A DNA stretch of 32,000 bases from Candidatus Omnitrophota bacterium (lineage in GTDB: Bacteria > Omnitrophota > Gorgyraeia > 2-01-FULL-45-10): the NCBI GenBank assembly GCA_023818895.1, contig JAMWCX010000001.1:1-32000 (forward strand). The letters are read 5' to 3'. Below the pieces are notes generated by a model that was not told the DNA's origin, did no database searches, and was given only the letters and a program-made list of their open reading frames with translations. A program made the position numbers and the translations under genes. Shown piece after piece: positions 1 to 18,079 of the stretch (within the stretch, counting starts at the first letter, position 1; every line of letters begins with the position of its first letter).

Positions 1-3000
1 GAATCCACAGCCGAAAAACTCCTGCCTTCACCCCGGGATAAGGAACAGTCGTACAAGTTCGCTCCCGGCTATCTCATGAACCAGCAGGAAAAACACGAGG
101 ACATAATCAAACAGAGGCAGGCGACCGATGATCTTCAGTGGGCGGTAGATCAGGATCTGCGAAAAAAGACGCGCGGCGAAGGTGAGGACGACGAGTGGAA
201 ACTGCAACGCAAGCGAGGCGGCGGCCAGGAGCGTGGTGGCGGGGAGGGCGCCATACAGTATACCTTGAGCAATTTTGACGAAAATGGCAAGCCGGGACAA
301 CTTAATGTGTATGAATATAACAGCGATCGTTCGCTACGCGCTATCGTAAGTTATGACATAGCTGACATGGATCCGGCGAAATGGCTTGCCGGCACGACAG
401 AACTGAAGACTGAGGACGGTTCAAAGCTTCTTGGCTCATATGCAAGCAAAGCCGACATCTCGACCCTGGGCGACAGAGATATTCTGACAATGACGTTTTA
501 TATCGGATCGAAAGGTTTCGAGGTCGCTGACTATGCCCTTTCCGGATATGACGAGGAGCTCGAGGCCTTTACGGAGCTGACGATGTACGAATACGGAGGC
601 GGCGGCGTGCTCGCGAAGACGGTGATGTATGATGTCTCCGGCATAACCGAAAAGCTGGAACCGGAGAACAAGGGGGCGTGGAAGGACCTTCTTGTGCCGA
701 CCCTTGTAAAGCGCGCGACGGTCTTCGAGGGCGAGAAATCTAAAGAGAGGATACGCTATGTGCTCGACAACTATTTTATCAGCGGAGAAGGCGCCAACAA
801 TCCGTCGCGGATAAGCATCTATGATTATAGCAAAGTAAGTGGCGACCAGCTTGATGAAGTAAGGACGTATGACATATCGAGCATGCGTGAAACCGTCCCT
901 GTTATGCTGCCCGGCGGCGTGCAGCTGCCTGCGGTGCCGGTTTCGGAAGAGGATCTGCTGGCGGAAGACCGCGACAGGCTCAGGGCTGTTGCGGTATATC
1001 AGGGAGAAAAGAATAAGGAGAAGGTCAATTATAGCCTGCGGTTTGGCGAAAGCGGTGTCCAGCTCTCGCGGTCAGATTACATCTACGATGAGGATGAGTC
1101 TGGCGACCTTGACATGGTTGTCACTTATCGCGGCGAGACAGAGGAGATCATATCGCGGCAGATGTATACGGGCAGGGAAGGAAAAGAAAAAGTGGAGCGG
1201 GCGATAAGCTACAGGACGAACGGCGAGATTACCTCGATAAGTAAGTATGTCTACGATCTTCCGGCATCTGAGTTCGGAGGCGACGCAAGCGCAAAGACGC
1301 TCGACCGGGTAATTACCTTCAGGAGCGGGGAGGACACCGATGATGCGGAAGTGTTTCTTGAGGATGGCTACATATCGAAGATATCTTACTATGAGGGGAG
1401 AGTGTCGGAAGAGAATCTGACCCACGTCTTCTCGCTGAACAGAGACGGATATCCGATTGAGAGGAGTGATTACATCTATGATATAGACCGGAACAAGGGG
1501 CTTGACCAGACGCGGACGTACCAGCTTGATGAAGGTGACGAGTATGATCTTGCGAAAGGTAAACTGCGGTCAGTATCGGATTATTCGGGTCTGACCGGTG
1601 AGGAGAAGATCCGGCACACCCAGACATACCGGCTGAACGAGGACGGAGCTCTCGAAGAGGATGATTACACGTGTTATATATACCAGAACGGCGTGCTTGT
1701 GCAGCACGAGACGTATTATGATAATGCCTCCTCTGCCCGCCTGAAACAGCTGGCCGTCTACCGCGGGACCGAGAGCGAGGAACGGCTTGCCAGCACGACC
1801 GATATGTACCGCTCGGGAGGCGTGAAGGCGTATTCCGAATATTCATACACCGGTAGGTCGCTCAGGGCGGTCGATACGTGGGACGGCATCGACAAGAAGG
1901 GGCTCAGGTCGCACTCGGTATTCGATGGTTTCGAAGGCGAGGAGAAGATCAGGTCGACGCAGGCCTACCACAAGAACGATGCGGGAGCCATTGAACCGAA
2001 CGATTACACCGTCTATAACTACGTGAACGCTGTCATGACCTCCCATACGGTCTACTATGGCGAGGGCGTTTCCGGACAGGTCAAGCAATACGCCGCCTAT
2101 ACCGGGGCCGAAGGCGAGGAGCGGCTCCACACCACGATCGATTACCGGCGCGACGGAAGCATAAGGAGTAATTCCCTGCACACCTATAATGCAGTTACCG
2201 GCGCCCTTGTCAGTGTGGCGGTATGGGACGGCCTGCAACAGATCAATATCCTGAGCGAATCGACCTTCTTCGGTTTTAAGGGAGAGGAAAAGACTCTTTT
2301 TACACAGACCTACCGTCTTAACGAAGCCGGTATTGTTGAGCCAAAGGACTATACTATCTACAAATATGAGAACGGCCGCCTTGCAAGCCATAGCACATAT
2401 TACGGGAATGAGGCCTCGACGCAGGTCAAGCAGCGGGCTTTCTACCAGAACGAGGAAGGTGAGGAGAAGCTCAAGACCACCACCGATTATTACCGCTCAG
2501 GAGCCGTGAGGAGTTATTCCGAATTCGATTACGACGCCAATAATACCCTCGCGTGCGTCAGTACTTGGACTGATGAAACCAAGGCGGTCTTGAAGAGCGT
2601 GTCGGCCTTCTTTGGCTTTGAAGGGGATGAGAATATCCTCAACACCCAGACCTACGTACTTACTTCTAATGGGAGCGTGGTTGCTAACGATTATACCGTG
2701 TATCGATACGAGAAAAGCGTTCTTGCAAGCCACCTCACCGTCTACGGTGATTCGTCTTCGACGGCACTGAAGCAAGAAGCGACCTATACAGGCCATGAGG
2801 GATCGGAGAAGATATCGACTACAACCGATTATTTCAGGCCGTCCAGCGGCACAGCGTCCTTGACGGATGGCTTCGCAAGGGGCGGTGTCAAGTCGTATTC
2901 GGAATACAGATATGACACTGTCTCGAAGGCGTTGAGAGGTGTATCCACATGGGAAGACAGCGCGAAGTCTGTACTCCTGAACGAGTCGATGTATGCGGGA

Positions 3001-3681
3001 TTTGACGGCGAGGAGAAGGTCCAGACCTCACAGTCATATTACCGGGATCATACGCCGAAAGAATTCACCAGGTATATATATGTTAACGGCGTCATTAGGG
3101 CTCATATCTCCTATTACGGGAACGGAAGTTCAGGCGCCGTCAGGCAGACGGCCACCTATACCGGCGAAGAGGGCGAGGAGGTCATAGACAATACGACAGA
3201 CTATGAGTACCCATTTGATGAAGGAGAGCAAGAGGGTGAGGAAGAGGCGGTAGCTGGGCAGGCTCCCGAGGATGAGAGCTCATACTCAGAATATACCTAT
3301 GACCCCGTATCGGGAGCTATGACGATGATGACGACCTGGTACGATTCTTCCAAGGTGCGGCTGAAGAGCGTAAGCACATTTTCAGGCAACAGGGGAGGCG
3401 AAAAGATACAAAGCACTCAGACCTATAACACGGACGGGTCATTCAAGGATTATACTGTCTATGCTTACGACGGACCCGCCCTTGTGTCGCACGCAACCTA
3501 CTACGGTGGGCCGTCGTCGGTGATTGTAAAGCAGGCCGCGATATATACCGGCACTGAAGGCTCAGAGAAAATATGGAAGACTACCGATTACCGGAGAGAT
3601 GGGACGATATCCTCGTATTCGGAATATACGTACGATAACAGGGCCCTGGAGAGGATAGATACCTGGGGTGAAAGAGGCTGA
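1..3681 (+). CDS. Giant YD/RHS-like beta-hairpin repeat protein, 5'-partial (frame open to the window edge)
   Basis: Frame 1 has no stop from nt 1 to TGA 3679-3681, so the ATG at 76 is probably internal. The translation is a continuous series of Y-x-Y-D...L..V.T(W/Y) hairpin-like motifs (e.g. YSEYTYDPVSGAMTMMTTWYD, YSEYRYDTVSKALRGVSTWED) resembling YD/RHS repeats. No signal peptide, TM segment, RHS core (DPxGL) or distinct C-terminal domain is visible. Confidence 0.8.
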   Translation, partial: ESTAEKLLPSPRDKEQSYKFAPGYLMNQQEKHEDIIKQRQATDDLQWAVDQDLRKKTRGEGEDDEWKLQRKRGGGQERGGGEGAIQYTLSNFDENGKPGQLNVYEYNSDRSLRAIVSYDIADMDPAKWLAGTTELKTEDGSKLLGSYASKADISTLGDRDILTMTFYIGSKGFEVADYALSGYDEELEAFTELTMYEYGGGGVLAKTVMYDVSGITEKLEPENKGAWKDLLVPTLVKRATVFEGEKSKERIRYVLDNYFISGEGANNPSRISIYDYSKVSGDQLDEVRTYDISSMRETVPVMLPGGVQLPAVPVSEEDLLAEDRDRLRAVAVYQGEKNKEKVNYSLRFGESGVQLSRSDYIYDEDESGDLDMVVTYRGETEEIISRQMYTGREGKEKVERAISYRTNGEITSISKYVYDLPASEFGGDASAKTLDRVITFRSGEDTDDAEVFLEDGYISKISYYEGRVSEENLTHVFSLNRDGYPIERSDYIYDIDRNKGLDQTRTYQLDEGDEYDLAKGKLRSVSDYSGLTGEEKIRHTQTYRLNEDGALEEDDYTCYIYQNGVLVQHETYYDNASSARLKQLAVYRGTESEERLASTTDMYRSGGVKAYSEYSYTGRSLRAVDTWDGIDKKGLRSHSVFDGFEGEEKIRSTQAYHKNDAGAIEPNDYTVYNYVNAVMTSHTVYYGEGVSGQVKQYAAYTGAEGEERLHTTIDYRRDGSIRSNSLHTYNAVTGALVSVAVWDGLQQINILSESTFFGFKGEEKTLFTQTYRLNEAGIVEPKDYTIYKYENGRLASHSTYYGNEASTQVKQRAFYQNEEGEEKLKTTTDYYRSGAVRSYSEFDYDANNTLACVSTWTDETKAVLKSVSAFFGFEGDENILNTQTYVLTSNGSVVANDYTVYRYEKSVLASHLTVYGDSSSTALKQEATYTGHEGSEKISTTTDYFRPSSGTASLTDGFARGGVKSYSEYRYDTVSKALRGVSTWEDSAKSVLLNESMYAGFDGEEKVQTSQSYYRDHTPKEFTRYIYVNGVIRAHISYYGNGSSGAVRQTATYTGEEGEEVIDNTTDYEYPFDEGEQEGEEEAVAGQAPEDESSYSEYTYDPVSGAMTMMTTWYDSSKVRLKSVSTFSGNRGGEKIQSTQTYNTDGSFKDYTVYAYDGPALVSHATYYGGPSSVIVKQAAIYTGTEGSEKIWKTTDYRRDGTISSYSEYTYDNRALERIDTWGERG
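1588..3678 (+). repeat. Six in-frame tandem super-repeats (113, 115, 114, 128, 129 and a truncated 98 codons) within the repeat-protein gene
   Basis: Unit heads: 1588 GLTGEEKIRHTQTY, 1927 GFEGEEKIRSTQAY, 2272 GFKGEEKTLFTQTY, 2614 GFEGDENILNTQTY, 2998 GFDGEEKVQTSQSY, 3385 GNRGGEKIQSTQTY. All are in frame 1. Units are conserved at protein level but clearly diverged at DNA level. More degenerate copies of the same motifs occur upstream (about 700-1587). Confidence 0.9.
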
Positions 3682-5245
3682 TCTTAACAGGCAGAGCATC
3701 AGGGCGGCCGCAGGCGAGGTGCGAAGCGGCATGGAAGGCACCATCACCAGGAGTCAGACTATAGTGATCGATGACGAGAGAACAGGTGTCCATGTCGTAC
3801 GAGGCGCCGATCACGAGGGCAGAAAACTTGCCGATGTCGCAAGGCAGCTCGGCGTATCTGCGGAAGGGATCGCCGGATACGAGGTTGGCGTCAAGTTCGT
3901 GCGCACGACCGCTTCTGACGGAAAAGTCGAGATTAGGGCAGTGACGAGCGAGCGTTCCGGACTTGAGCTTAAGGACGGGTTCGTCATACCGAGCGTTACC
4001 AGGACTTTCAAGGAGAGCGAGGATCTCGTGGCGAGCATGCATTCACACCTCGACAGGATAGAGTCGATCGAGTCTGTCGTCGTCGATATGGCGGCCTCGG
4101 CCGCGATCGCGCGGATAACCGGCAAGCGGATATCAGAGCACATCATACAGCCATCCGCCGATGGCATGGATATAGTTGTGAACGAGGTGAAAGAGGAGGA
4201 GCCGGGCCTCTTCAGATTGGTGGGAAGAGAGGATCTTGGTTCCGTGGCGCTTCCCGAGTCTCAGCATGTCGGATTCCGCGCATGGCAGGAAGTACGCACC
4301 AGCCGGTCTACTAGGGTGCCTATATACGGCGGGGCCGAGATGGAGCGCACCGATGAGCCTGACATATTCGCGATCATATTGAGGGAGACAGCGACCAGTT
4401 CGGAGGCACATGAGGCGAAACTTGAGGCGTCAATACACAGGATGGCCGAGGAGATGATGCCCCCTGCCGTCGAACAGCCATTTGCCTTGATAGGTGTCGA
4501 AGCGACTGCTGGGGCGATGCTCGCGCCTCCCGCCAGGCAGATCAGAGCTATCGACGTTATTCTCGATATGATAGCCGCCGGCAAATATGATTTCACCGAA
4601 CGGGACGCTTTCAGCGCGCTCCGGAAACTGGCTACAAGCGGCGTCATCACCCAGCCGGTGGCTATCGCGTTCGACGCCACAAGCGTTGTCGACGCAAACG
4701 GTAAGATCACGAACGCGTCCTTCGGAGAGACGGTCTTAAGTGCGCGTGCCAATGACGATATAGCCAAGGTTGTCCTCATCGCCAGGAGCGAGGATCAGAA
4801 GCGCTCGCTTGAAGGCAAGATCGAAGGTGTAAGTGTTGTCGTCGTAAACGAAAATACGGACAATCCGTCGAATGTCATAAGGGTGGCATTCGAGAACAGG
4901 GTCGGCAATATCGCTATCTTCCTAGAGGATAGCGGCACCGAGCTCGCTCTCGTCGAGAGAGATGTCGCGGCGGTGCAGCATACGCCAAGGGCCGGGACCA
5001 TTGCCTACGCCGTTTTGAATAAGCAGGCACCTGCAGCTGAAGTGCCTGCTGGCAAGATAAACCTCGCAAACCTCCTTACATCCATCGCGATGAAGGGCGC
5101 GTTCGTCGGGATGGGCTACGACGAGCGCGACGAGCGCGTGCAGAGCCTGGCCCGGTTCTTCGGCTTCCACAGGATAATCGCCAACATCGCCAAGGCCCTC
5201 GAGGACTTCATGAGGGCCGTGGAGCTCGCCGCAAAGAGCGTGTAA
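3668..5245 (+). CDS. Hypothetical 525-aa acidic soluble protein, no recognisable domain; possibly the displaced C-terminal part of the upstream repeat protein
   Basis: Long ORF in frame 2, GTG 3668 to TAA 5243-5245, overlapping the upstream stop by 14 nt. SD-like GAGGAT at 3651-3656. Alternative ATG at 3731, preceded by GAGGTG. No Cys, a single Trp, no hydrophobic segment, no motif I can assign. Confidence 0.7.
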   Translation: MKEADLNRQSIRAAAGEVRSGMEGTITRSQTIVIDDERTGVHVVRGADHEGRKLADVARQLGVSAEGIAGYEVGVKFVRTTASDGKVEIRAVTSERSGLELKDGFVIPSVTRTFKESEDLVASMHSHLDRIESIESVVVDMAASAAIARITGKRISEHIIQPSADGMDIVVNEVKEEEPGLFRLVGREDLGSVALPESQHVGFRAWQEVRTSRSTRVPIYGGAEMERTDEPDIFAIILRETATSSEAHEAKLEASIHRMAEEMMPPAVEQPFALIGVEATAGAMLAPPARQIRAIDVILDMIAAGKYDFTERDAFSALRKLATSGVITQPVAIAFDATSVVDANGKITNASFGETVLSARANDDIAKVVLIARSEDQKRSLEGKIEGVSVVVVNENTDNPSNVIRVAFENRVGNIAIFLEDSGTELALVERDVAAVQHTPRAGTIAYAVLNKQAPAAEVPAGKINLANLLTSIAMKGAFVGMGYDERDERVQSLARFFGFHRIIANIAKALEDFMRAVELAAKSV

Positions 5246-5263: not shown

Positions 5264-5292
5264 TTGACACCCGCCTTTTTATCAGATATACT
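5264..5292 (+). promoter_or_regulatory. Sigma70-type promoter for the AbiE pair
   Basis: TTGACA (5264-5269), 17-bp spacer, TATACT (5287-5292), preceded by an A-tract. The 15-nt core AAAAATCCCTTGACA matches 14/15 with the promoter at 15774-15788. Confidence 0.6.
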
Positions 5293-5325
5293 TAATTAGC
5301 AATAGTGTTAACTAAGTATACTTAT

Positions 5326-5919
5326 ATGAAATACGCCAAACTGACAGCGATAGATAAACTTTATTTCGGGTACGAAGAGATAGGCCGCGCATTGGGCATC
5401 AGCGATAAGTCCGCCAGGGTGTCGGCTAACAGGTATGTAAGGCAGGGCTTTCTCATCAGGATAAAGCGCAATCTCTACGTATTGAAAGAGCGTTGGTCTG
5501 CGTTTGGCAGGGAGGAGAAGTTTATCCTCGCTAATATCGCCCAGGTGCCCTCTTATATATCGCTTATGACGGCGCTCGATTATTATGAGGTGACGACACA
5601 GGTCCAGCGCAACTTAATCGAGTCTGTCGCGCTGAAAAGGACAAAGTCGATAGAAGCGGGCGACGACATATTCAATTATTCCAAGATAGACGCCAGGCTC
5701 TATTTCGGGTTTTCGAGAAAGAACGGTTTCTTTATCGCGGCGCCGGAAAAGGCGTTTCTCGACGCCGTCTATCTCCTGTCGTTAAAAAGGTACCGTTTCG
5801 ATCTGGCATCGATAGATCCGGACAGGCTGGACAAGGCCGTCTTGTGCTCCATGGCCCGAAAGTATCCCCGAAAAACCAAGAAGGCGCTCGAATCGTATGG
5901 ATATTTTAAAAACACATGA
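5326..5919 (+). CDS. abiEi: AbiEi-family antitoxin / wHTH transcriptional regulator (type IV TA)
   Basis: N-terminal pattern ...EEIGRALGISDKSARVSANRYVRQGFLIRIKRNLYVL... fits the AbiEi wHTH signature (G-hydrophobic-R-hydrophobic-xRGxY-like). It sits directly upstream of, and overlaps by 23 nt, an AbiEii-type gene. The ORF track starts at GTG 5305. ATG 5326 is preferred because the predicted transcription start is around 5299. Confidence 0.7.
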   Translation: MKYAKLTAIDKLYFGYEEIGRALGISDKSARVSANRYVRQGFLIRIKRNLYVLKERWSAFGREEKFILANIAQVPSYISLMTALDYYEVTTQVQRNLIESVALKRTKSIEAGDDIFNYSKIDARLYFGFSRKNGFFIAAPEKAFLDAVYLLSLKRYRFDLASIDPDRLDKAVLCSMARKYPRKTKKALESYGYFKNT

Positions 5920-6550
5920 GATATTTGAGATAGATACGCTCGACGGGTTGAAGAGCGCGGGGCTCGTTGAGCCGCTGGTCTTCGGCGGCGGAACGATGCT
6001 TCGGCTGTGCTATGAACTGAACCGCTATTCCGTGGACATTGACTTCTGGTTCATTAAAAAAGTCGACGCAAAATCGTATTTCGACAGGATGCGCCGATAT
6101 CTGGAGATGAATTTTGACCTGACCGACGCGCAGATAAAATTCTATATGCTCCTTTTCGAGATCCGTTCAAAGGATTATCCGAAACGGCTCAAGATAGAGA
6201 TAAGAAAAGAGGCGCGGCAGTGCGATTTCCAGGAAAAGATCGCCTTCTCGAAGTTCAGCACGAAGCAGGTGATCCTTAGGGTTCACACGCTTGAGCAGAC
6301 GATGAAGAACAAGGTCGAGGCGGCGTTGGAAAGGAAAGAGATTCGCGATTTCTTTGATATAGAATTTATGCTTCGCCGGGGGATAAAGATGACACTTAGC
6401 GGTAAGAAAAGGGAGGAGCTTTCGAAGGTCGCCGTTTCCTTCAAGGATAACGACTTCAAGGTCACGCTGGGTTCTATCATCGACGCCGATACAAGGCGCT
6501 TCTATATCGCGAATAAATTCTCATACCTGCTCTCCAGCCTGCGTGGATAG
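5897..6550 (+). CDS. abiEii: AbiEii/AbiGii-family nucleotidyltransferase toxin (short form, 217 aa)
   Basis: Nucleotidyltransferase-fold signature FGGGTMLRLCYELNRYSVDIDFWF (GGTxL ... RxSxDxDF), typical of the AbiEii toxin family. Translationally coupled to the upstream AbiEi-like gene. Confidence 0.75.
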   Translation: MDILKTHEIFEIDTLDGLKSAGLVEPLVFGGGTMLRLCYELNRYSVDIDFWFIKKVDAKSYFDRMRRYLEMNFDLTDAQIKFYMLLFEIRSKDYPKRLKIEIRKEARQCDFQEKIAFSKFSTKQVILRVHTLEQTMKNKVEAALERKEIRDFFDIEFMLRRGIKMTLSGKKREELSKVAVSFKDNDFKVTLGSIIDADTRRFYIANKFSYLLSSLRG

Positions 6551-6662: not shown

Positions 6663-8351
6663 ATGACTGACCTGGAAATAGCCCGCAAGGCAAAGCCAAA
6701 GCCCATCACGGAAATAGCTGCGCGGTTGGGTATACAACGTAAATATCTTGAGGCCTACGGTGACTTCAAGGCGAAAGTCTCTCTCGATATTCTAAGCAAG
6801 ACAGGCCGCGGTCGCGGTAAATATATCGTAGTTACCGGAATTACGCCCACCCATCTGGGCGAAGGGAAGACCGTTACGACGATAGGTCTTTCCATGGCTA
6901 TTAACAGGGCCGGCAAAAAGAGCGTTGCTTGCCTCAGGCAGCCTTCGATAGGGCCTTTCTTCGGCATAAAGGGCGGCGGCGTGGGCGGCGGCTACTCGCA
7001 GGTTATACCGACGCTCGATATTAATCTGCATCTCACTGGCGACATCCATGCCGTCTCTCAGGCGCATAATCTTTGTGCCTCATTTCTCGATAACCACATC
7101 TTCAGGGGCAACCGCCTCGGTCTGGACAAGAATAAGATTCATTGGAATCGTGTTGTGGATGTAAACGATCGTGCCCTGAGGAAGGTCAGAATAGGCCTCG
7201 ACTGCCCGGCGTGCGCGGAACGCTCAAGTGGTTTCAACATCACTGCCGCAAGCGAGGTCATGGCGATACTTGCGCTTGCCGATTCGGTCAAGGATATGCG
7301 TGAGCGTTTAGGCAGGATAGTGGTGGGTTTCACCAAGAATGACAAACCCGTTACCGCCGAGGACATTAAAGTCGCAGGCTCAATGGCGCTTCTCTTAAAG
7401 GATGCGATAAAACCCACGCTGGTGCAGACGATAGAAAACACGCCCGCCTTCATACATACAGGACCTTTTGCCAACATCACGCACGGCAATTCATCCATAA
7501 TAGCCGACAGGATGGCTCTTGGGTTGGCGGATTATGTGGTGACGGAGTCCGGCTTCGGCGCAGACTGCGGCCTTGAGAAGTTCGTCAATATAAAATGCCG
7601 GGTAAGCGGCCTTAAGCCCGACGCCGTTGTCCTTGTGTGTTCGGTGCGGGCGCTTAAAGTACATTCAGGAATGTTCAGGATGACAGTCGGCCGTCCTCTT
7701 GGAATAGATATAGAAAAAGAGAATATTGACGCTGTTGAGCAAGGGTGTGTGAACCTTGAAAGACAGATAGAGAATTCGAGGCTCTATGGAGTTCCGTGTG
7801 TCGTAGCCATCAACAAATTCAGGACTGACACCCAAAAAGAAATTAACATCATAAGGCGCAGAGCCCTTGAGTGCGGCGCGTTTGATTGCGTGGTAAGTCA
7901 ATTTTACAAGTGCGGATCAAAGGGCGGTATGCCGCTTGCGCTTGCCGTTATGGGGGCGTGTGAGGCTAGGTCTAAGTTCCATTTTCTGTATCCGGCCGAA
8001 GCTTCGATAAAGTCGAAGATCGAGACGATAGCCCGCTTGGTCTACGGTGCCAGGGGCGTACACTATGACAGGTGCGCCGAAGGAAATATTTCGCTTTTTC
8101 AGAAACTTGGCTACGGACATCTTCCTGTATGCATGGCCAAGACGCATCTTTCGCTTTCCCATGATCCGGCGCTCAAAGGCGCGCCGAAGGATTTCATTCT
8201 GCCTGTCCGGGACGTCCAACCGTCGATCGGCGCTGGGTTCTTGTACGCGCTCTGCGGAAATATTCAAACGATGCCGGCTCTGCCGGCTCATCCTCACGGC
8301 GAGAACATAGATATAGATTCAAAAGGGAGAATGAGATATGTATCTCGATAA
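6663..8351 (+). CDS. fhs: Formate-tetrahydrofolate ligase (formyl-THF synthetase)
   Basis: 562 aa. Hallmarks present: GEGKTVTTIGL P-loop-like motif, PSIGPFFGIKGGGVGGGYSQV, INLHLTGDIHAV. Confidence 0.95.
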   Translation: MTDLEIARKAKPKPITEIAARLGIQRKYLEAYGDFKAKVSLDILSKTGRGRGKYIVVTGITPTHLGEGKTVTTIGLSMAINRAGKKSVACLRQPSIGPFFGIKGGGVGGGYSQVIPTLDINLHLTGDIHAVSQAHNLCASFLDNHIFRGNRLGLDKNKIHWNRVVDVNDRALRKVRIGLDCPACAERSSGFNITAASEVMAILALADSVKDMRERLGRIVVGFTKNDKPVTAEDIKVAGSMALLLKDAIKPTLVQTIENTPAFIHTGPFANITHGNSSIIADRMALGLADYVVTESGFGADCGLEKFVNIKCRVSGLKPDAVVLVCSVRALKVHSGMFRMTVGRPLGIDIEKENIDAVEQGCVNLERQIENSRLYGVPCVVAINKFRTDTQKEINIIRRRALECGAFDCVVSQFYKCGSKGGMPLALAVMGACEARSKFHFLYPAEASIKSKIETIARLVYGARGVHYDRCAEGNISLFQKLGYGHLPVCMAKTHLSLSHDPALKGAPKDFILPVRDVQPSIGAGFLYALCGNIQTMPALPAHPHGENIDIDSKGRMRYVSR

Positions 8352-8958
8352 GCCGCTACGGCAATACCTTGACGACCTCGCGGCCAAAAAACCCGCCCCC
8401 GGCGGCGGATCCGCCGCCGCGCTCGCCGCCGCGATAGGCACGAGCCTCATGTCGATGGTGGCTAATTACACCGTCGGAAAGCCCAAATACAAAGACGTCG
8501 AAGCTAAGGTGGCCGATATCCTTCTTAGGGTCCAGAATTTCGACAGCGAGCTTCGATCTCTCGTAGACGACGACGTTGCCGCCTATAAAAAACTTTCGGA
8601 GGGATTGAAGGCCGCCTGCGACGATAAGGCGAAGAAAGAGGCGCTTTACAAGGCCGCCTGCGAGGTTCCGTTCAAGGTCTGCGAGATATCGGCCAAGTGC
8701 TTAAAACTCTGCAAGGAGCTGGCGGAATCCGGCAACAGGAACCTCGTTACCGACACGGCGATCGCGGCGATACTTCTCGAAGGGGCTTTCTTCTCGGCGA
8801 AGTACAACGTTTACATAAATCTTGAGTGCATCGAAGATATGGATTATATCGGCAAGGTCCACCAGGTCCTTGCGCCGCTCGAGGAGAGCATACCGGAACT
8901 TAAGGAAGAGATACTCGAGATATGCGAGGACGTGATCGATACAATGGAGTGTAAATAA
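8338..8958 (+). CDS. fchA: Methenyl-THF cyclohydrolase (cyclodeaminase/cyclohydrolase family, FchA-like)
   Basis: 206 aa. N-terminus ...LDDLAAKKPAPGGGSAAALAAAIGTSLMSMVANYT... is the signature of the formiminotransferase-cyclodeaminase/FchA family. Overlaps fhs by 14 nt. SD GGGAGA at 8325-8330. Confidence 0.85.
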   Translation: MYLDKPLRQYLDDLAAKKPAPGGGSAAALAAAIGTSLMSMVANYTVGKPKYKDVEAKVADILLRVQNFDSELRSLVDDDVAAYKKLSEGLKAACDDKAKKEALYKAACEVPFKVCEISAKCLKLCKELAESGNRNLVTDTAIAAILLEGAFFSAKYNVYINLECIEDMDYIGKVHQVLAPLEESIPELKEEILEICEDVIDTMECK

Positions 8959-8996
8959 TACGGAAGAAAGAGACGAAAATGGAAGGAGTCACCCAG

Positions 8997-9860
8997 ATGG
9001 CAGGGAAATTGCTCGAGGGAAAGCCTCTGGCGGAAAAGATAAAGGCCGCTATCACCGCCGAGGTCGCAGTTTTAAAAAATAAGTGCGGAAAGCCGCCGAG
9101 GCTCATCGCCGTACAGATAGGCGACAATGCATCATCGGCCGTTTACATAAAAAATCAGAAGAAGGCAGCAGAGGCTTTGGGCATAGAATACGATCTCAAG
9201 ACGTTGCCGGCCGCATTGACTCAGGCCGAGGCCGAGAAACTGATAAATGAGCTTAATGCGGACAAGGGTGTTACCGCGATCATCCTTCAGCTTCCCGTGC
9301 CGTCCCAGATAGACGCCAAGAAACTTGTGAGCATGGTATCGCCTGACAAGGACGCCGAGGGCATGCATCCGCAGAATATCGGCAAGATCCTTCTCGGTAA
9401 ATATTCTATCGGACCGTGCACGCCAATGGCCATAATGGAGCTTCTGGACTCGACAGGCGAGAATCTTTATGGCAAAGAAGCGGTGGTGGTCGGTCACTCC
9501 GAGATAGTGGGAAAGCCTATTTCGTTGATGCTGCTCAACAGGTTCGTTACCACAACAGTCTGCCATATAGCAACGGGCGAGCGGGGGGTATTGCCAGACC
9601 ACGTGAAGCGCGCTGAGATTCTTATCGTCGCCGTTGGTAAGGCCGGCATAGTGAAGGGTGACTGGATCAAGCCGGGCTCTATAGTCATAGACGTCGGCAT
9701 AAACAGGGTGGCTGACAAGATAGTCGGGGATGTCGAGTTCGAGCCCGCCGCGGCAAAGGCCGCGTTTATTACGCCGGTTCCCGGCGGAGTGGGACCATTG
9801 ACGACAACGATACTCATGCGCAATACGGTGGAATTATTCAAGTCTCAGGTGAGCAAATGA
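8997..9860 (+). CDS. folD: Bifunctional methylene-THF dehydrogenase / methenyl-THF cyclohydrolase
   Basis: FolD pattern: LLEGKPLAEKI..., SSAVYIKNQKKAAEALGI, DAEGMHPQNIGKI, PCTPMAIMELL, VVVGHSEIVGKP, PVPGGVGPLTTTILM. ATG 8997 is preferred over ORF-track ATG 8979 because AAGGAG (8983-8988) lies 8 nt upstream of it. Confidence 0.93.
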   Translation: MAGKLLEGKPLAEKIKAAITAEVAVLKNKCGKPPRLIAVQIGDNASSAVYIKNQKKAAEALGIEYDLKTLPAALTQAEAEKLINELNADKGVTAIILQLPVPSQIDAKKLVSMVSPDKDAEGMHPQNIGKILLGKYSIGPCTPMAIMELLDSTGENLYGKEAVVVGHSEIVGKPISLMLLNRFVTTTVCHIATGERGVLPDHVKRAEILIVAVGKAGIVKGDWIKPGSIVIDVGINRVADKIVGDVEFEPAAAKAAFITPVPGGVGPLTTTILMRNTVELFKSQVSK

Positions 9861-10723
9861 GTTTTTGCGACAAGATAAGGTCCGGTAAATTCGTGGTGAC
9901 AAGCGAGATAGGTCCTCCGAAGGGAACGGACATAAAGGAGATGCTCGACGACGCCGATCTCGTCAAGGGCAAGGTAGACGCCATAAACGTTACTGACCTG
10001 CAAAGCTCGGTGATGAGGGTCGGTTCGCTTGCCATATGCCGCCTTTTGAAAGAGCGCGGCATCGAACCTATATTCCAGCTGACATGCCGCGACCGTAACC
10101 GTCTGGCGCTCCAGAGCGACCTTCTGTCCGCCAGCGTCCTTGGCATAGAAAACGTTCTTCTTCTCACCGGAGATTACCCCACCCTTGGCGACCATCCCGA
10201 GGCCAAACCGGTCTTTGATATAGGATCGGTCCAGCTTATAGAGATCGCCAGGACGTTGCAGGAAGGCAAGGACATGAAGGGAAACACCCTTAAGGGCGCG
10301 CCGAAATTCTGCATAGGCGCTGTTGTTAATCCCGGCGCAGATCCGCTAGAGCCTGAAATCATCAAGATGGAAAAAAAGATCGAGGCCGGCGCCGAATTCT
10401 TCCAGACACAGGCGGTGTATGATATTGATCAGTACAAGAGATTTCTGGACGCGATCAGGCATCTTAAAACGACAATCCTTGCCGGCATAGTGCTGTTGAA
10501 ATCAGCCGGTATGGCTAAGTTCATGAACAAAAACGTCGCCGGCGTGTTTGTTCCCGAAAATCTGATAAAGCAGATGGAAGAAGCAAAGGACAAATCCGCC
10601 ACCTCGATCGAAATCGCGGCGCGACTCATAAAGGAGCTAAAGCCATTGAGTCAGGGCATACATATAATGCCGATAGGATGGGATAAGAAAGTGCCGGCAG
10701 TGTTGGAGGCGGCGGGATTATAG
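9857..10723 (+). CDS. metF: Methylenetetrahydrofolate reductase (MetF, small acetogen/anaerobe-like form)
   Basis: 288 aa. MetF-like motifs present: ...FVVTSEIGPPKG..., AINVTD, LLLTGD, FFQTQAVYD. ATGA overlap with the folD stop (9857-9860). Confidence 0.88.
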   Translation: MSFCDKIRSGKFVVTSEIGPPKGTDIKEMLDDADLVKGKVDAINVTDLQSSVMRVGSLAICRLLKERGIEPIFQLTCRDRNRLALQSDLLSASVLGIENVLLLTGDYPTLGDHPEAKPVFDIGSVQLIEIARTLQEGKDMKGNTLKGAPKFCIGAVVNPGADPLEPEIIKMEKKIEAGAEFFQTQAVYDIDQYKRFLDAIRHLKTTILAGIVLLKSAGMAKFMNKNVAGVFVPENLIKQMEEAKDKSATSIEIAARLIKELKPLSQGIHIMPIGWDKKVPAVLEAAGL

Positions 10724-10741
10724 CGGCAATCTATGAACTAA

Positions 10742-10764
10742 ACAATTTTGAATTTCAAAATTGT
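10742..10764. promoter_or_regulatory. Perfect 23-bp palindrome (candidate operator, or weak AU-rich terminator) in the metF-acsB spacer
   Basis: ACAATTTTGAA-T-TTCAAAATTGT: 11-bp arms with a 1-nt centre. It overlaps a possible promoter: TTGTAA (10761-10766), 17 bp, TGtGATATT (10781-10789). It is followed by aatttgttt. Confidence 0.45.
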
Positions 10765-10815
10765 AATTTGTTTAACTCTCTGTGATATTGGAAGTTAGAG
10801 ATTACTGGAGATTAT

Positions 10816-13035
10816 ATGAAAGGAAAAGCTATGGCTAAAGTTACGGCAGAGATCACCGCAAAAGACGTTGCATCACTTATAGTTAAAGGCGCCGGTACTG
10901 TGGCGTCACTTACAGAGGGGTATTTGGCTAAAGCGATCAAGGAGAAAGGCGAGAGTTCAAAAGTGGGTTTCCCGGACACGGCCTTTTATTTGCCGCTTGC
11001 CAACGCGCTTTTAGGCGCGGAAGTGAAGACGCTTGCCGACGCAAAGAAGGTGTTTGAGACGGCGAAATCGTTTCTCCCAAAGATTGTCGACGAGTCAAAG
11101 TGGGACAAATTTCTTAAAGACGCCCTTAATGCCGGCGTCGCGACAATACTTTCCGCGGAGATACTGCAGGCCCTGCGCTACCTTTACGGAGAAGAGCCTC
11201 AGGCCGATTGCCCCGGTTTCTTTTCGGACACGCTTCTTCGCGCGCTTGGAATACAGCTGGTCGATGGCAGGATATCGGGAATAGCCGTTGTATTGGGCAA
11301 GGCGCCTGACGCGAAGACCGCCGTTGAGATCATCCGCGACCTCCAGAAACGCAATATACTTACTCTTGTGGGCGATTCGGTAGGAGGTGTAAGCATAATA
11401 GAACAGCTCAAAGAAGGCGGCCTCCATATGGGACTTGAGAGTTACGTCGTCCCGTTCGGTCGTGATACGGCCTCAGTTGTTTATGTCCTGAATTTCGCCA
11501 TACGTGCCGCGCTCACATTCGGCGGCATAAAGGCCGGAAACACCGCCGCGTGCGTCGATTATGTCAGAAACAGGGTGCCGGCGTTCGTGCTTCTCCTAGG
11601 TGGGGTCGATGAGATAAAGGCCGCTGCCGGCGGCGGAGCGCTGGCCGCCGGAGTTCCCATAATAACCGATCTCGATCTTCCCGAGATTAAGGTACCGGGT
11701 GTCTGCGCGCACGAAGAATGCCTCGTCGTCGAAAAAGATTATAAAAAGATAGTGCAGAAGGCGATCGAGAGCAGGGGCATCAAAGTAAAGGTGTCCCAGA
11801 TACCGGTGCCGGTTCCCTTCTCGGCCGCATTTGAGGGAGAAAGGGTCAGACGGGCCGACATGTTCGTGCAATTCGGCGGCAAGTACTCAACGGCGTTCGA
11901 ATACTTGAGGATGAGGAAGATGGACGAGATAGAGAACGGCAGGGTCACGGTCGTGGGGCCGGAGATTGACGCTATGCAGGAGGGCGGGAGCTATCCGCTC
12001 GGTATCGTTGTTGATGTGGCGGGCCGCAAGATGTCGGCGGATTTCGAGCCTATACTAGAGAGGCAGATACACAAGTTCCTCAATTACGCTATGGGCGTAT
12101 TCCACATGGGCCAGCGTGACATGAACTGGATAAGGATCTCAAAGGACGCCGTAAAGAGCGGTTTCAAAATCCGCCATTTTGGGGATATTCTAGTTGCTAA
12201 GCTCCACGATGAGTACGGCGCGATCGTTGACAAGGTTCAGGTCGCTATCTATACGAATGAGGCGGACGTAAGCAGGCTATTGCCCGAGGCAAAGAAGGTG
12301 TTCGAGGCCAGGGACAACCGCATAGCGGGCATGACCGACGAATCGGTCGATACGTTCTATAGCTGCACTCTATGCCAGAGCTTCGCGCCGGACCATGTCT
12401 GCGTAGTGAGTCCAGAAAGGCTTGGGCTGTGCGGCGCTTATTCGTGGCTTGACGCGAAGGCCGCCCACGAGATAACGCCGACCGGTGGAAATCAGCCCAT
12501 AAAGAAAGGCAGGGCCATAGACGCTGATAAGGGGATTTGGGAGGGCGTCAATGCCTTCGTGTCCGAAAAATCACACCAGCACACGACGCGCATGGCCGCC
12601 TATTCTATTATGGATTCTCCGATGACCTCCTGCGGATGTTTCGAGTGCATAGTGGCCATCGTGCCGGAAGCTAACGGTGTAATGGTGGTAAACCGCGAAT
12701 ACACGGGAGAGACACCGGCCGGCATGAAGTTCACGACCCTTGCCTCATCGGTTGGTGGTGGCGCGCAGACACCGGGTTTTCTCGGTGTCGGGAGGCTTTA
12801 TGTAGTCTCGAAGAAGTTCATATCGGCCGAAGGAGGATTGAAGAGGGTGGTATGGATGCCGAAGGAGCTTAAAGACGCCCTTTCAGACAGACTTAAGGCG
12901 CGTTGTAGCGAGATAGGCATGCCGGATCTTTTCGACAAGATTGCCGATGAGACGGTCGCCACGGATGCGGCTACTCTTTTCGCGCATCTCGAGAAAGTTG
13001 GCCATCCGGCCCTGTCTATGCCTCCTATGATGTAG
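10816..13035 (+). CDS. acsB: Acetyl-CoA synthase catalytic subunit (bacterial AcsB / CODH-ACS alpha)
   Basis: 739 aa, recognisably collinear with Moorella-type AcsB as I remember it. A-cluster ligand motifs present: FYSCTLCQSFAPDHVCVVSPERLGLCGAYSWLDAKA and PMTSCGCFEC. The C-terminal ...GHPALSMPPMM is also typical. Alternative start ATG 10831 (MAKV...); both candidates have SD-like sequences. Confidence 0.92.
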   Translation: MKGKAMAKVTAEITAKDVASLIVKGAGTVASLTEGYLAKAIKEKGESSKVGFPDTAFYLPLANALLGAEVKTLADAKKVFETAKSFLPKIVDESKWDKFLKDALNAGVATILSAEILQALRYLYGEEPQADCPGFFSDTLLRALGIQLVDGRISGIAVVLGKAPDAKTAVEIIRDLQKRNILTLVGDSVGGVSIIEQLKEGGLHMGLESYVVPFGRDTASVVYVLNFAIRAALTFGGIKAGNTAACVDYVRNRVPAFVLLLGGVDEIKAAAGGGALAAGVPIITDLDLPEIKVPGVCAHEECLVVEKDYKKIVQKAIESRGIKVKVSQIPVPVPFSAAFEGERVRRADMFVQFGGKYSTAFEYLRMRKMDEIENGRVTVVGPEIDAMQEGGSYPLGIVVDVAGRKMSADFEPILERQIHKFLNYAMGVFHMGQRDMNWIRISKDAVKSGFKIRHFGDILVAKLHDEYGAIVDKVQVAIYTNEADVSRLLPEAKKVFEARDNRIAGMTDESVDTFYSCTLCQSFAPDHVCVVSPERLGLCGAYSWLDAKAAHEITPTGGNQPIKKGRAIDADKGIWEGVNAFVSEKSHQHTTRMAAYSIMDSPMTSCGCFECIVAIVPEANGVMVVNREYTGETPAGMKFTTLASSVGGGAQTPGFLGVGRLYVVSKKFISAEGGLKRVVWMPKELKDALSDRLKARCSEIGMPDLFDKIADETVATDAATLFAHLEKVGHPALSMPPMM

Positions 13036-16212: not shown

Positions 16213-17409
16213 ATGGCAAAGGAAACGTTTGTAAGGTCAAAGCCTCACGTAAACGTAGGAACGATAGGCCACATCGACCACGGCAAGACAACGCTCACCG
16301 CGGCCATACTTGCGGTCCTTGCCAAAAAGGGCAAGGCACAGGTTAAAAGCTATGCCGATATAGCCAAGGGCGGCACCGTCCGCGATGAGACCAAGACCGT
16401 CACAATAGCGGTTGCCCACGTCGAGTACGAGACCGACAATCGCCACTATGCCCACATCGACTGCCCCGGACACGCTGACTACATCAAGAACATGATAACA
16501 GGAGCCGCCCAGATGGACGGCGCGATCCTGGTCGTCTCTGCCGTAGATGGACCTATGCCCCAGACAAGAGAACATATACTCCTTGCCAGGCAGGTCAACG
16601 TCCCATCCATAGTTGTCTACTTAAACAAGGTAGACCTTGTGGAGGATAAGGAGCTGGTAGACCTGGTGGAACTGGAGGTAAGAGAGCTTCTTACCAAGTA
16701 CGGCTTTCCGGGAGACAAGACCCCTGTTATCAAAGGAAGCGCCCTTAAAGCCATGACGAACCCAGATGACGCCGAGGCCACCAAGTCCATACATGAGCTC
16801 ATGGCGGCCGTTGACTCCTTCATCCCTGAGCCCAAAAGAGACATAGATAAACCATTCCTCATGCCCATAGAAGACGTATTCTCCATAACAGGAAGGGGTA
16901 CTGTAGGAACTGGAAGAGTTGAAAGAGGCCAGATAAAGGTAGGAGAGGAAGTTGAAATAGTCGGCATAAGGCCGACCAAGAAGTCCGTTGTGACCGGCGT
17001 AGAGATGTTCAGAAAACTGCTGGACGTCGGCCAGGCCGGAGATAATATAGGAGTTCTCTTAAGGGGTATAGAGAAAAATGACCTGGAAAGAGGCCAGGTC
17101 CTCGCTAAGCCGGGCTCCATCACTCCCCATACAAAGTTCAAAGCAGAAGTATATATACTCAGTAAAGAGGAGGGCGGCCGCCATACGCCGTTTTTCAACG
17201 GATATCGGCCGCAGTTCTACTTCCGGACCACCGATGTTACCGGAGTCGTCACCCTCCCCAAGGGCGTCGAAATGGTCATGCCGGGAGATAACGTACAGTT
17301 TGAAGTATCGCTCATAACGCCGATCGCCATGGAGAAGGAGCTGCGCTTCGCTATTCGTGAAGGCGGCCATACCGTAGGCGCGGGTGTCGTGACGGAAGTG
17401 ATAGAGTAA
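16213..17409 (+). CDS. tuf: Elongation factor Tu (copy 1)
   Basis: 398 aa. [21 protein letters not shown] and SALK G-motifs present. SD GGGGAGGA upstream. Confidence 0.98.
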
Positions 17410-17415
17410 GTAAAG

Positions 17416-17565
17416 ATGCAAGAGCTTATCACCCTCGAATGCACTAAATGCAAGAACAGGAACTATTCTTCTACCAAGAATAAAAAGAAAAATCCTGATA
17501 AGCTCGAATTGAACAAGTTTTGCAATACTTGCAGAAAGCATACACCACATAAGGAGATAAAATAA
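17416..17565 (+). CDS. rpmG: Ribosomal protein L33 (Zn-ribbon C4 form), 49 aa; below the ORF-track size cut-off
   Basis: Manual translation: [49 protein letters not shown]. It has the L33 pattern with CxxC...CxxC. It sits between tuf and secE, as in many bacteria. Confidence 0.9.
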
Positions 17566-17655
17566 ATTCAAGTGACCTGCCATGGCGGCAGGCAGTGGCT
17601 CTCGGTTTAAGGCACAGTCTTTAATCTTGCCGGGTAGAGTCAGGAGGAGATGGAG

Positions 17656-17732
17656 AGGCCAGTAGCTCCAATTGGTAGAGCGGCGGTCTCCAAAACCGCG
17701 TGTTGGGGGTTCGAGTCCCTCCTGGCCTGCCA
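17656..17732 (+). tRNA. tRNA-Trp (anticodon CCA), CCA encoded
   Basis: Manual cloverleaf. Acceptor AGGCCAG/CTGGCCT. D arm GCTC-CAATTGGTA-GAGC. Anticodon arm GCGGT-CTCCAAA-ACCGC. T arm GGGGG-TTCGAGT-CCCTC (one G-U pair). Discriminator G, then CCA. Classical position upstream of secE-nusG. Confidence 0.92.
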
Positions 17733-17826
17733 AATTCGCCGGCCCTGAAAATGTGGTCCCAGGCCGCAACGTAAAGGACCGGCGCAAAGTAGCAAATCCC
17801 GCAGTAAGACTGATTTTAAGTGATAC

Positions 17827-17855
17827 TTGACCGGATCGGCCGAAAAATAAAATAT
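17827..17855 (+). promoter_or_regulatory. Possible internal promoter for secE-nusG
   Basis: TTGACC (17827-17832), then either TAAAAT (17848-17853, 15-bp spacer) or AAATAT (17850-17855, 17-bp spacer). Spacing and -10 quality are imperfect. Confidence 0.3.
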
Positions 17856-17887
17856 TTTCCGGGCACGAGGAGAGTTTTTCTAATATT

Positions 17888-18079
17888 ATGGCAAATAAGC
17901 TGGCGATATTTTTCAAAGACGTTAAGGTTGAGATGACGAAAGTCTCCTGGCCGAATAAGGACGAGCTCATAGGCTCCACGGTGATAGTCCTGATTTCGCT
18001 AGCGATCCTCTCGCTTTTTATAGGGGTCTGTGACGTTATACTGTCCAAGACCGTTAATATAATTATGTCGAGGCTTTAG
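17888..18079 (+). CDS. secE: Preprotein translocase subunit SecE (single-TM form)
   Basis: 63 aa. Conserved ...FFKDVKVEMTKVSWPNKDEL... followed by one TM helix. Located between tRNA-Trp and nusG. Confidence 0.88.
   Translation: MANKLAIFFKDVKVEMTKVSWPNKDELIGSTVIVLISLAILSLFIGVCDVILSKTVNIIMSRL

Follow-up and report, generated by a model that had tools for sequence, protein, structure and literature searches.

Proteins of the Rhs/YD class are built as a long series of antiparallel, Tyr-rich beta-hairpins, to which a non-repeat module is joined at the C-terminus, and genes split at homopolymers in draft assemblies and metagenome-assembled genomes (MAGs) present themselves as adjacent same-strand open reading frames (ORFs) that switch frame at the homopolymer. 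From Omnitrophota, large and giant proteins with SecA-like domains and many transmembrane (TM) helices have been described (West-Roberts et al., 2023, bioRxiv 10.1101/2023.11.21.568195; 2026 preprint 10.64898/2026.06.07.730766). The locus described here recalls each of these. It lies at the start of a 732,676-bp contig (JAMWCX010000001.1) from a ‘Candidatus Omnitrophica’ MAG; the contig’s first 32 kb are the window, that is, the whole stretch of DNA that was analysed. Its components are a Tyr-rich repeat gene (gene 1, NC938_00005) and the ORF that follows it (ORF2, NC938_00010), which lie on the same strand in different frames and overlap by 14 nt. At a probability of roughly 0.6, we consider gene 1 and ORF2 to be a single gene, or to have been one until very recently, broken in or next to a GGGG run at positions 3665–3668. 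This reading is favoured because the module encoded by ORF2 is always C-terminal in its relatives, the homology boundaries of the two ORFs abut, expression signals of its own are missing ahead of ORF2, and ORF2 itself is intact.

The junction between gene 1 and ORF2

When 1.84 billion representatives were searched exhaustively by profile, 21 relatives of ORF2 emerged, and a metagenome scan with a four-sequence alignment of the module yielded six loci. In 14 of the 14 relatives (proteins or loci) with visible upstream sequence, the module is the C-terminal part of a longer protein. The length of that upstream sequence varies from 165 aa in P0016 (~165 in P0009, ~250 in P0007, 285 in P0013, 347 in P0002, ~460 in P0011, ~545 in P0020) through ~1190 aa in P0015 to 3322 in P0010, ~3800 in P0008, and 7281 in P0018, and it reaches at least 757, 73, and 3200 aa at metagenome loci L022, L023, and L027, respectively. 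No stand-alone member was found among the ~14 informative relatives, the sole seemingly short module protein (P0014) being open to its contig edge. The closest homologue, P0002 (859 aa, 34% identity), was the only one recovered by a word-index search, and its residues 350–859 align with ORF2 residues 6–525. Since the module is a separate +1-frame ORF in the window and C-terminal in all of these relatives, we infer that a single gene once comprised both ORFs and that an indel in the G run broke it.

The two homologies meet at the junction. On the upstream side, the final super-repeat of gene 1 (unit 6) terminates at a W codon (3664–3666), after which gene 1 continues for just four residues to its stop (C-terminus ...YDNRALERIDTWGERG*, TGA at 3679–3681), versus a tail of ~55 aa past the last repeat in P0006 (1759 aa), the sole complete relative of gene 1, which carries an inserted S8 peptidase. 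On the downstream side, a family hidden Markov model (HMM) built with the window left out aligns frame 2 from the L at nt 3683 to the end of ORF2 (308 bits; HMM positions 16–527), the posterior probability being high across SIRAAAGEVRSGMEGTITRSQ. Together with the BLASTP alignment to P0002, this places the beginning of module coding upstream of both ATG 3731 and GTG 3719. These two codons were accordingly ruled out as alternative starts of ORF2, high-posterior family homology being present already from nt 3683. Several module relatives carry GV(D/K)xxx(L/I/V)P in the corresponding position, where frame 2 reads GVKEADLN, ungapped, from 3665; this sequence likeness is only suggestive of module homology extending back to 3665.

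Between gene 1 and ORF2 there is neither a spacer nor any promoter-like or terminator-like site, and the two therefore appear to share one transcription unit. All 525 codons of ORF2 are open, and the residues that are invariant in the module family, E72 (3881–3883), H125 (4040–4042), and H127 (4046–4048), are all present (alignment A4); a further family residue, D140 (4085–4087), is mostly kept. An intact ORF2 with its invariant residues suggests that the break is either recent or artefactual. TM-like segments occur upstream of the module in 7 of 11 module proteins, and fusion to the anchored product of gene 1 fits such membrane tethering.

Frame 2 is closed by TAG at 3656–3658 and frame 1 by the TGA of gene 1, so that any join of the two frames falls in the short interval where both are open (Table 1). 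Within it, GGGG is the sole homopolymer of at least three bases that separates the final repeat residue from GTG 3668. Removal of one G gives ...IDTW-VKEADL..., and addition of two gives ...IDTWG-VKEADL.... The initial annotation had already placed the end of gene 1, the frame-2 stop, the GTG, and the G run where the sequence has them, and its confinement of any join to 3659–3678 follows from the two stops. If gene 1 and ORF2 were one gene, it would have encoded a single protein of ~1,820 aa, with an N-terminal anchor (lost at the contig start), a Tyr-rich, RHS/YD-like antiparallel beta-sheet scaffold, and a ~520-aa C-terminal module. A surplus of one base or a deficit of two at 3665–3668 would have broken the frame, after which frame 1 would run through four junk codons (GERG) to the TGA, leaving the module in frame 2. 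The lesion could be present in the cells, as a recent or strain-level mutation with residual module expression possible by re-initiation at GTG 3668, or in the consensus only. The repeat gene has created a contig end 3.7 kb away from the locus, and consensus quality is plausibly lower there.

The initial annotation likewise took the locus for one gene split at GGGG, arguing that the +1 frame supplies the missing part of unit 6. That conclusion stands, on the C-terminal position of the module and the abutting homologies; the argument from repeat continuation does not. Scored with an HMM of the five true junctions between a TW motif and the following unit, the first 48 residues of ORF2 obtained 0.2–0.6 bits, which was equalled or exceeded by 7.8% of 5000 shuffles and by 8.8% of 992 unrelated real 48-mers, while the true junctions scored 31–63 bits when each was left out in turn. 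The N-terminus of ORF2 is thus no more similar to the repeat unit than shuffled sequence is, an outcome named beforehand as speaking against the continuation. The spacing from TW to the next unit head is 17 residues in five of five real junctions and 22 in the proposed one. The ‘GMEG’ stretch does begin 343 nt past the head at 3385 (GGC at 3728), but this is not a match to the repeat period: the apparent agreement with 114 codons plus 1 nt arises because unit 6 is internally shorter, with 92 residues from head to TW compared with 96–98 in units 1–3 and 111–112 in units 4 and 5. The corresponding ‘GMEG..TRSQT’ aligns instead with the module family’s own ‘G-I-L-R-e-G-Q-x-V-T’ stretch. Nor does gene 1 appear to stop 16 codons short. 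In an AlphaFold2 (AF2) model of two units, which predicts an uninterrupted beta-hairpin array (predicted local distance difference test score, pLDDT, 91.1; predicted TM-score, pTM, 0.80), the TW-ending strand closes a hairpin and the ‘LxSxSxF’ strand opens the following one, so that in the model the repeat of gene 1 stops at a clean hairpin boundary.

The one-gene reading also has a number of observations against it. The Tyr-rich repeat and the module occur together in no relative, since the unit HMM of gene 1 matched none of the module proteins and the module HMM matched none of the 18 loci related to gene 1; the fused architecture would therefore be unprecedented. No orthologue closer than 34% for ORF2 or 39% for gene 1 (N-terminal third) is available that would show a fused ORF. 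No other conserved gene is broken in the 32-kb window despite its ~350 homopolymers of at least 4 nt, which indicates a low rate of assembly indels, and a G4 run is short for slippage. The GTG start coincides exactly with the first residue that can be aligned, and an overlap of 14 nt also occurs naturally elsewhere in the window, at fhs/fchA. Taken alone, the first 24 residues of ORF2 scored 3.4 bits against the module family, a value matched by 4.3% of shuffles, although a test on so short a segment is weak. The locus resembles genes split at homopolymers in draft and MAG assemblies in its adjacent same-strand ORFs, the 14-nt overlap, the frame switch at a homopolymer, and a downstream domain that relatives carry only within longer proteins, and differs from them in that its run has four bases, no other window gene is broken, and no fused orthologue was found.

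Other readings of the junction

A genuine, established two-gene arrangement is less likely but a real rival. Here, gene 1 would end naturally after its last hairpin and the 525-aa module would be translated from GTG 3668 by translational coupling, with termination at TGA 3679 and re-initiation 11 nt upstream. The NCBI Prokaryotic Genome Annotation Pipeline (PGAP) annotates two separate genes, overlapping pairs are common in the window, and no other frameshift occurs in it. GTG 3668 is the only start codon open to ORF2 as a gene of its own and coincides with the first family-alignable residue; it is, however, a GTG and not an ATG, and the Shine-Dalgarno (SD)-like GGAGAGGA upstream of it ends 12 nt ahead of the start, outside the 4–10 nt of other window genes. 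The clean structural boundary at which gene 1 terminates would suit a natural end, yet the tail ‘GERG’ is merely a frame-shifted reading of the first module codons. ORF2 is intact and keeps its invariant residues, but as a separate protein the module would be without the upstream tether that most of its relatives have, and none of the ~14 informative relatives stands alone. Two genes would, moreover, stem from a split by the same indel, so that this arrangement differs from one interrupted gene mainly in the age of the split and in the expression of ORF2.

It is very doubtful that the fused product represents a new RHS-like device of host-dependent Omnitrophota, in which an anchored, core-less YD-like scaffold would carry as its tip the E/HxH module of SecA-domain giants, and the G run or +1 recoding would set the ratio of scaffold-only to scaffold-plus-module product.

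Orphan toxin tips occur downstream of rhs and cdiA genes. By analogy, ORF2 could be a displaced or ‘orphan’ C-terminal cassette, recombined out of frame behind a scaffold gene and silent unless recombined again. The N-terminal partners of the module all differ between relatives, and its joining to many unrelated partners suggests that the module moves as a cassette. The scaffold is RHS-like in fold, and toxin-antitoxin genes lie downstream of ORF2 (AbiEi/AbiEii) as well as of P0002 (HTH plus Fic), suggesting variable loci. In contrast to rhs orphans, there is no repeat- or core-derived sequence ahead of the cassette, the window holds one copy only, and the stretch from ORF2 to the promoter-like site at 5264 contains no small, cognate immunity-like ORF. 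The module is also large and conserved, including its extreme C-terminus, unlike hypervariable toxin tips. We therefore regard an orphan cassette as highly improbable.

In prfB, an in-frame UGA preceded by an SD-like purine stretch accompanies a +1 shift. Programmed +1 ribosomal frameshifting at GAA-AGA or GGC-UGA, by which scaffold and scaffold-module fusion would be made in a set ratio, is the least probable reading: a +1 change anywhere in 3659–3678 would give the fusion and the in-frame UGA at the end of gene 1 directly follows the SD-like AAGAGG, as in prfB, but the junction has no codon that could re-pair in the P site (UGG to GGG, GGU to GUG, and GGC to GCU give at most two of three pairs), AGA is not rare here (9.3 per 1000), no stable downstream RNA structure is predicted (z = 0.33), no orthologues closer than 34% or 39% are available that would show conservation of the site, and programmed +1 sites are very rare in bacteria. 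The mention of a programmed shift in the initial annotation thus found no supporting feature in re-pairing codons, rare codons, or RNA structure. Read-through of TGA 3679, or its decoding as selenocysteine, was ruled out, as ORF2 lies in another frame and a second frame-1 stop follows two codons on. Transcriptional slippage was ruled out on the general knowledge that a G4 run is too short for it.

Architecture of the scaffold and the module

The frame-1 translation of bases 1–3678 matches the protein of NC938_00005 (P0003, ‘partial’, 1226 aa) exactly, and gene 1 is therefore 5′-incomplete, truncated at the contig start. Alignment with its relatives P0004 and P0005 suggests that ~75 N-terminal residues, including a hydrophobic membrane anchor, are absent; in P0004, a TM-like segment spans residues 12–34. 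The heads of the six super-repeat units lie at 1588, 1927, 2272, 2614, 2998, and 3385. Tandem Repeats Finder detected no DNA-level repeat across them, so the units have diverged from one another. Units 4 and 5 (2791–3384) bear insertions of 13–15 residues in the same loop, of which the unit 5 insertion (EYPFDEGEQEGEEEAVAGQAPEDESS) is strongly acidic and includes, in its DNA, a short 9-nt tandem repeat (3163–3181). The other features of the locus are listed in Table 1.

Table 1. Positions in the window of gene 1, ORF2, and features at and around their junction.
Feature	Position	Strand	Basis
Gene 1 (NC938_00005), Tyr-rich all-beta repeat protein, 5′ end missing	1..3681	+	Translation; 100% match to P0003
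Six super-repeats of 113–129 codons each	1588..3666	+	Unit HMM (i-Evalues 1e-41 to 1e-53); AF2; Foldseek
Only interval with frames 1 and 2 both open	3659..3678	+	TAG 3656–3658, TGA 3679–3681
GGGG run, likeliest site of a 1-nt surplus (G3 to G4) or 2-nt deficit (G6 to G4)	3665..3668	+	Sequence; indel inferred
Gene 1 tail ‘GERG’ and TGA, read as a putative out-of-frame start of the module	3667..3681	+	Translation
ORF2 (NC938_00010, 525 aa), conserved C-terminal module	3668..5245	+	Family HMM built without the window, 308 bits
Module N-terminal domain, residues 1–190	3668..4237	+	Alignment A4; AF2 pLDDT 70–92
Variable linker, predicted disordered, residues 197–287	4256..4528	+	pLDDT <50; poorly aligned A4 columns
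Module C-terminal alpha/beta domain, residues 290–525	4535..5242	+	pLDDT ~90; alignment A4
Promoter-like site after ORF2, TTGACA-17-TATACT, 11/12	5264..5292	+	Consensus match only

The conserved N-terminal region of gene 1 was found at 18 loci (L004–L021) in GTDB Omnitrophota genomes, some of them labelled Planctomycetia. The gene is still open at the contig end in 15 of the 18, at up to at least 2903 aa, and is cut by N runs in the other three, from which we conclude that the family consists of long, assembly-breaking genes. Lengths reached by the relatives are at least 2903, 2217, and 3087 aa; P0004 and P0005 are both cut at their 3′ ends. The super-repeat region used as sole query returned no matches, not even the gene 1 protein itself. 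This Tyr-rich repeat gene family breaks short-read assemblies systematically, and the window’s own contig begins inside gene 1.

The ORF at 3668–5245 is identical to the 525-aa product of NC938_00010. Searches for its function gave no significant match in Pfam, NCBIfam, or PDB profiles, and Foldseek with the ORF2 model returned generic Rossmann-like matches only (TM-scores 0.13–0.18, query-length normalised). The E, HxH, and D pattern of the module’s N-terminal domain recalls the JAB/MPN (JAMM) metalloenzymes, although no Pfam, NCBIfam, or PDB sequence match accompanies it, and comparison with the JAB fold is limited in that the C-terminal domain dominates the whole-model Foldseek search. Nearly all module members (P0002–P0021) end in ...A-(V/I/K)-S-(A/V/L) directly before the stop (window 5200–5242). 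Such conservation at the very C-terminus points to a functional need for a free end, which could serve, for instance, in sorting or docking.

Several relatives of the module merit separate mention. P0002 is followed by an HTH_3 and Fic pair, and ORF2 likewise precedes toxin-antitoxin genes. The N-terminal partner of the module in P0002 contains, at residues 170–235, a Cys...His...Asp pattern (ACYGNS...HFWVE...VIDAF) without a Pfam match, which we take to resemble that of transglutaminase-like cysteine peptidases. In P0024 (184 aa), the first ~118 residues match the module N-terminal domain and the remainder shares 65% identity with RpoC (residues 824–911 of the window’s RpoC), the two parts meeting at an ‘RSV’ that both have; a chimera made in assembly or gene calling seems likelier than a real fusion. 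At the metagenome locus L026 (positions 1–881), a module relative is split into two overlapping ORFs (1–702 and 546–881) by a frameshift within the C-terminal domain, which indicates that such breaks do occur in assemblies of this family.

Related proteins, genomic setting, and significance

The scaffold of gene 1 resembles a YD-repeat sheet, as judged from its model, but is not assigned as an Rhs protein. The top Foldseek matches of the two-unit model were Rhs effectors, BC components of Tc toxins, and teneurins (E 3e-7 to 1e-4, probability up to 1.0), with TM-scores to these structures that were low (0.15–0.29); single-layer sheets such as OspA matched too. The RHS_repeat family of Pfam (PF05593) had no match in gene 1 even at E up to 10, nor did any Pfam family at E up to 0.01. 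A regular-expression search (DPxG[LWIV] and PxxxxDPxG) found no Rhs core motif in gene 1 or ORF2, in agreement with the initial annotation. The RHS-type layout proposed for the locus is thus borne out in part, by the structural matches but not by Pfam or the core motif.

Beyond the predicted array of Tyr-rich antiparallel beta-hairpins, gene 1 shares with Rhs/YD proteins motifs such as YSEYTYDNRAL, which recalls Y-x-Y-D-x-x-G-R-L, and the order of scaffold and then non-repeat C-terminal module. It differs from them in its units, which are super-repeats of 113–129 aa, and in its N-terminus, where the predicted membrane anchor stands in place of a PAAR, VgrG, or plug domain. The ORF2 module is conserved, with a two-domain structure common to 21 proteins, and is not polymorphic, and the genes after ORF2 are AbiEi/AbiEii behind a promoter-like site of their own and not a cognate immunity gene.

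Directly 3′ of ORF2 (window 5305–6550) lie genes for an AbiEi-like antitoxin (PF13338, 25.6 bits, barely over the cut-off) and an AbiEii nucleotidyltransferase toxin (PF08843, E 4e-19). The two overlap by 23 nt, and the near-consensus promoter-like site of Table 1 precedes the pair. A Wood-Ljungdahl cluster follows on the forward strand (6663–13035), comprising fhs, an FTCD_C-type cyclodeaminase gene (fchA), folD, metF, and acsB, which encodes the beta subunit of carbon monoxide dehydrogenase/acetyl-CoA synthase (CODH/ACS); the overlap of fhs and fchA equals that of gene 1 and ORF2. The window also has a BatD-like gene, a TPR/SH3 gene, tRNA-Thr, tuf, tRNA-Trp, rpoB, and rpoC, and the ORFs flanking rpoB and rpoC fit nusG, rplKAJL, rpsLG, and fusA, as assigned from ORF size and order alone. 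A 329-aa ORF on the reverse strand (17059–18048), antisense to the tuf–tRNA-Trp–nusG interval, overlaps tRNA-Trp (17656–17732), has no Pfam match, and is probably spurious. Apart from gene 1 and ORF2, the window thus holds an ordinary chromosomal set of genes, all of them intact.

The locus bears on the giant proteins of Omnitrophota through its module, which terminates P0010 (3870 aa), P0008 (4255 aa), and P0018 (7816 aa), all with SecA-DEAD-like motifs (‘ATGEGKT’) and TM bundles, and through gene 1, whose relatives are likewise long repeat genes at which assemblies break. The window protein differs from the giants in that it would reach only ~1.8 kaa even when fused and has no SecA-like domain. 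A search by terms of the two preprints on these proteins (10.1101/2023.11.21.568195 and 10.64898/2026.06.07.730766) found no description of an ORF2-type C-terminal module.

The junction itself is an ordinary frameshift problem, and NC938_00005 and NC938_00010 should probably be annotated as one interrupted gene instead of a repeat protein and an orphan hypothetical. New, and of modest interest, is that an RHS-like scaffold is paired here with a rare module also found at the end of giant Omnitrophota proteins. Two parts of the ‘dark matter’ of Omnitrophota are thereby connected, namely an assembly-breaking, Tyr-rich scaffold of RHS-like fold and a rare module of ~500 aa with an invariant Glu and His-x-His. 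If it is true that this module is a common functional tip of surface and giant proteins, the version encoded by ORF2 would be a small one, tractable for expression and structure work.

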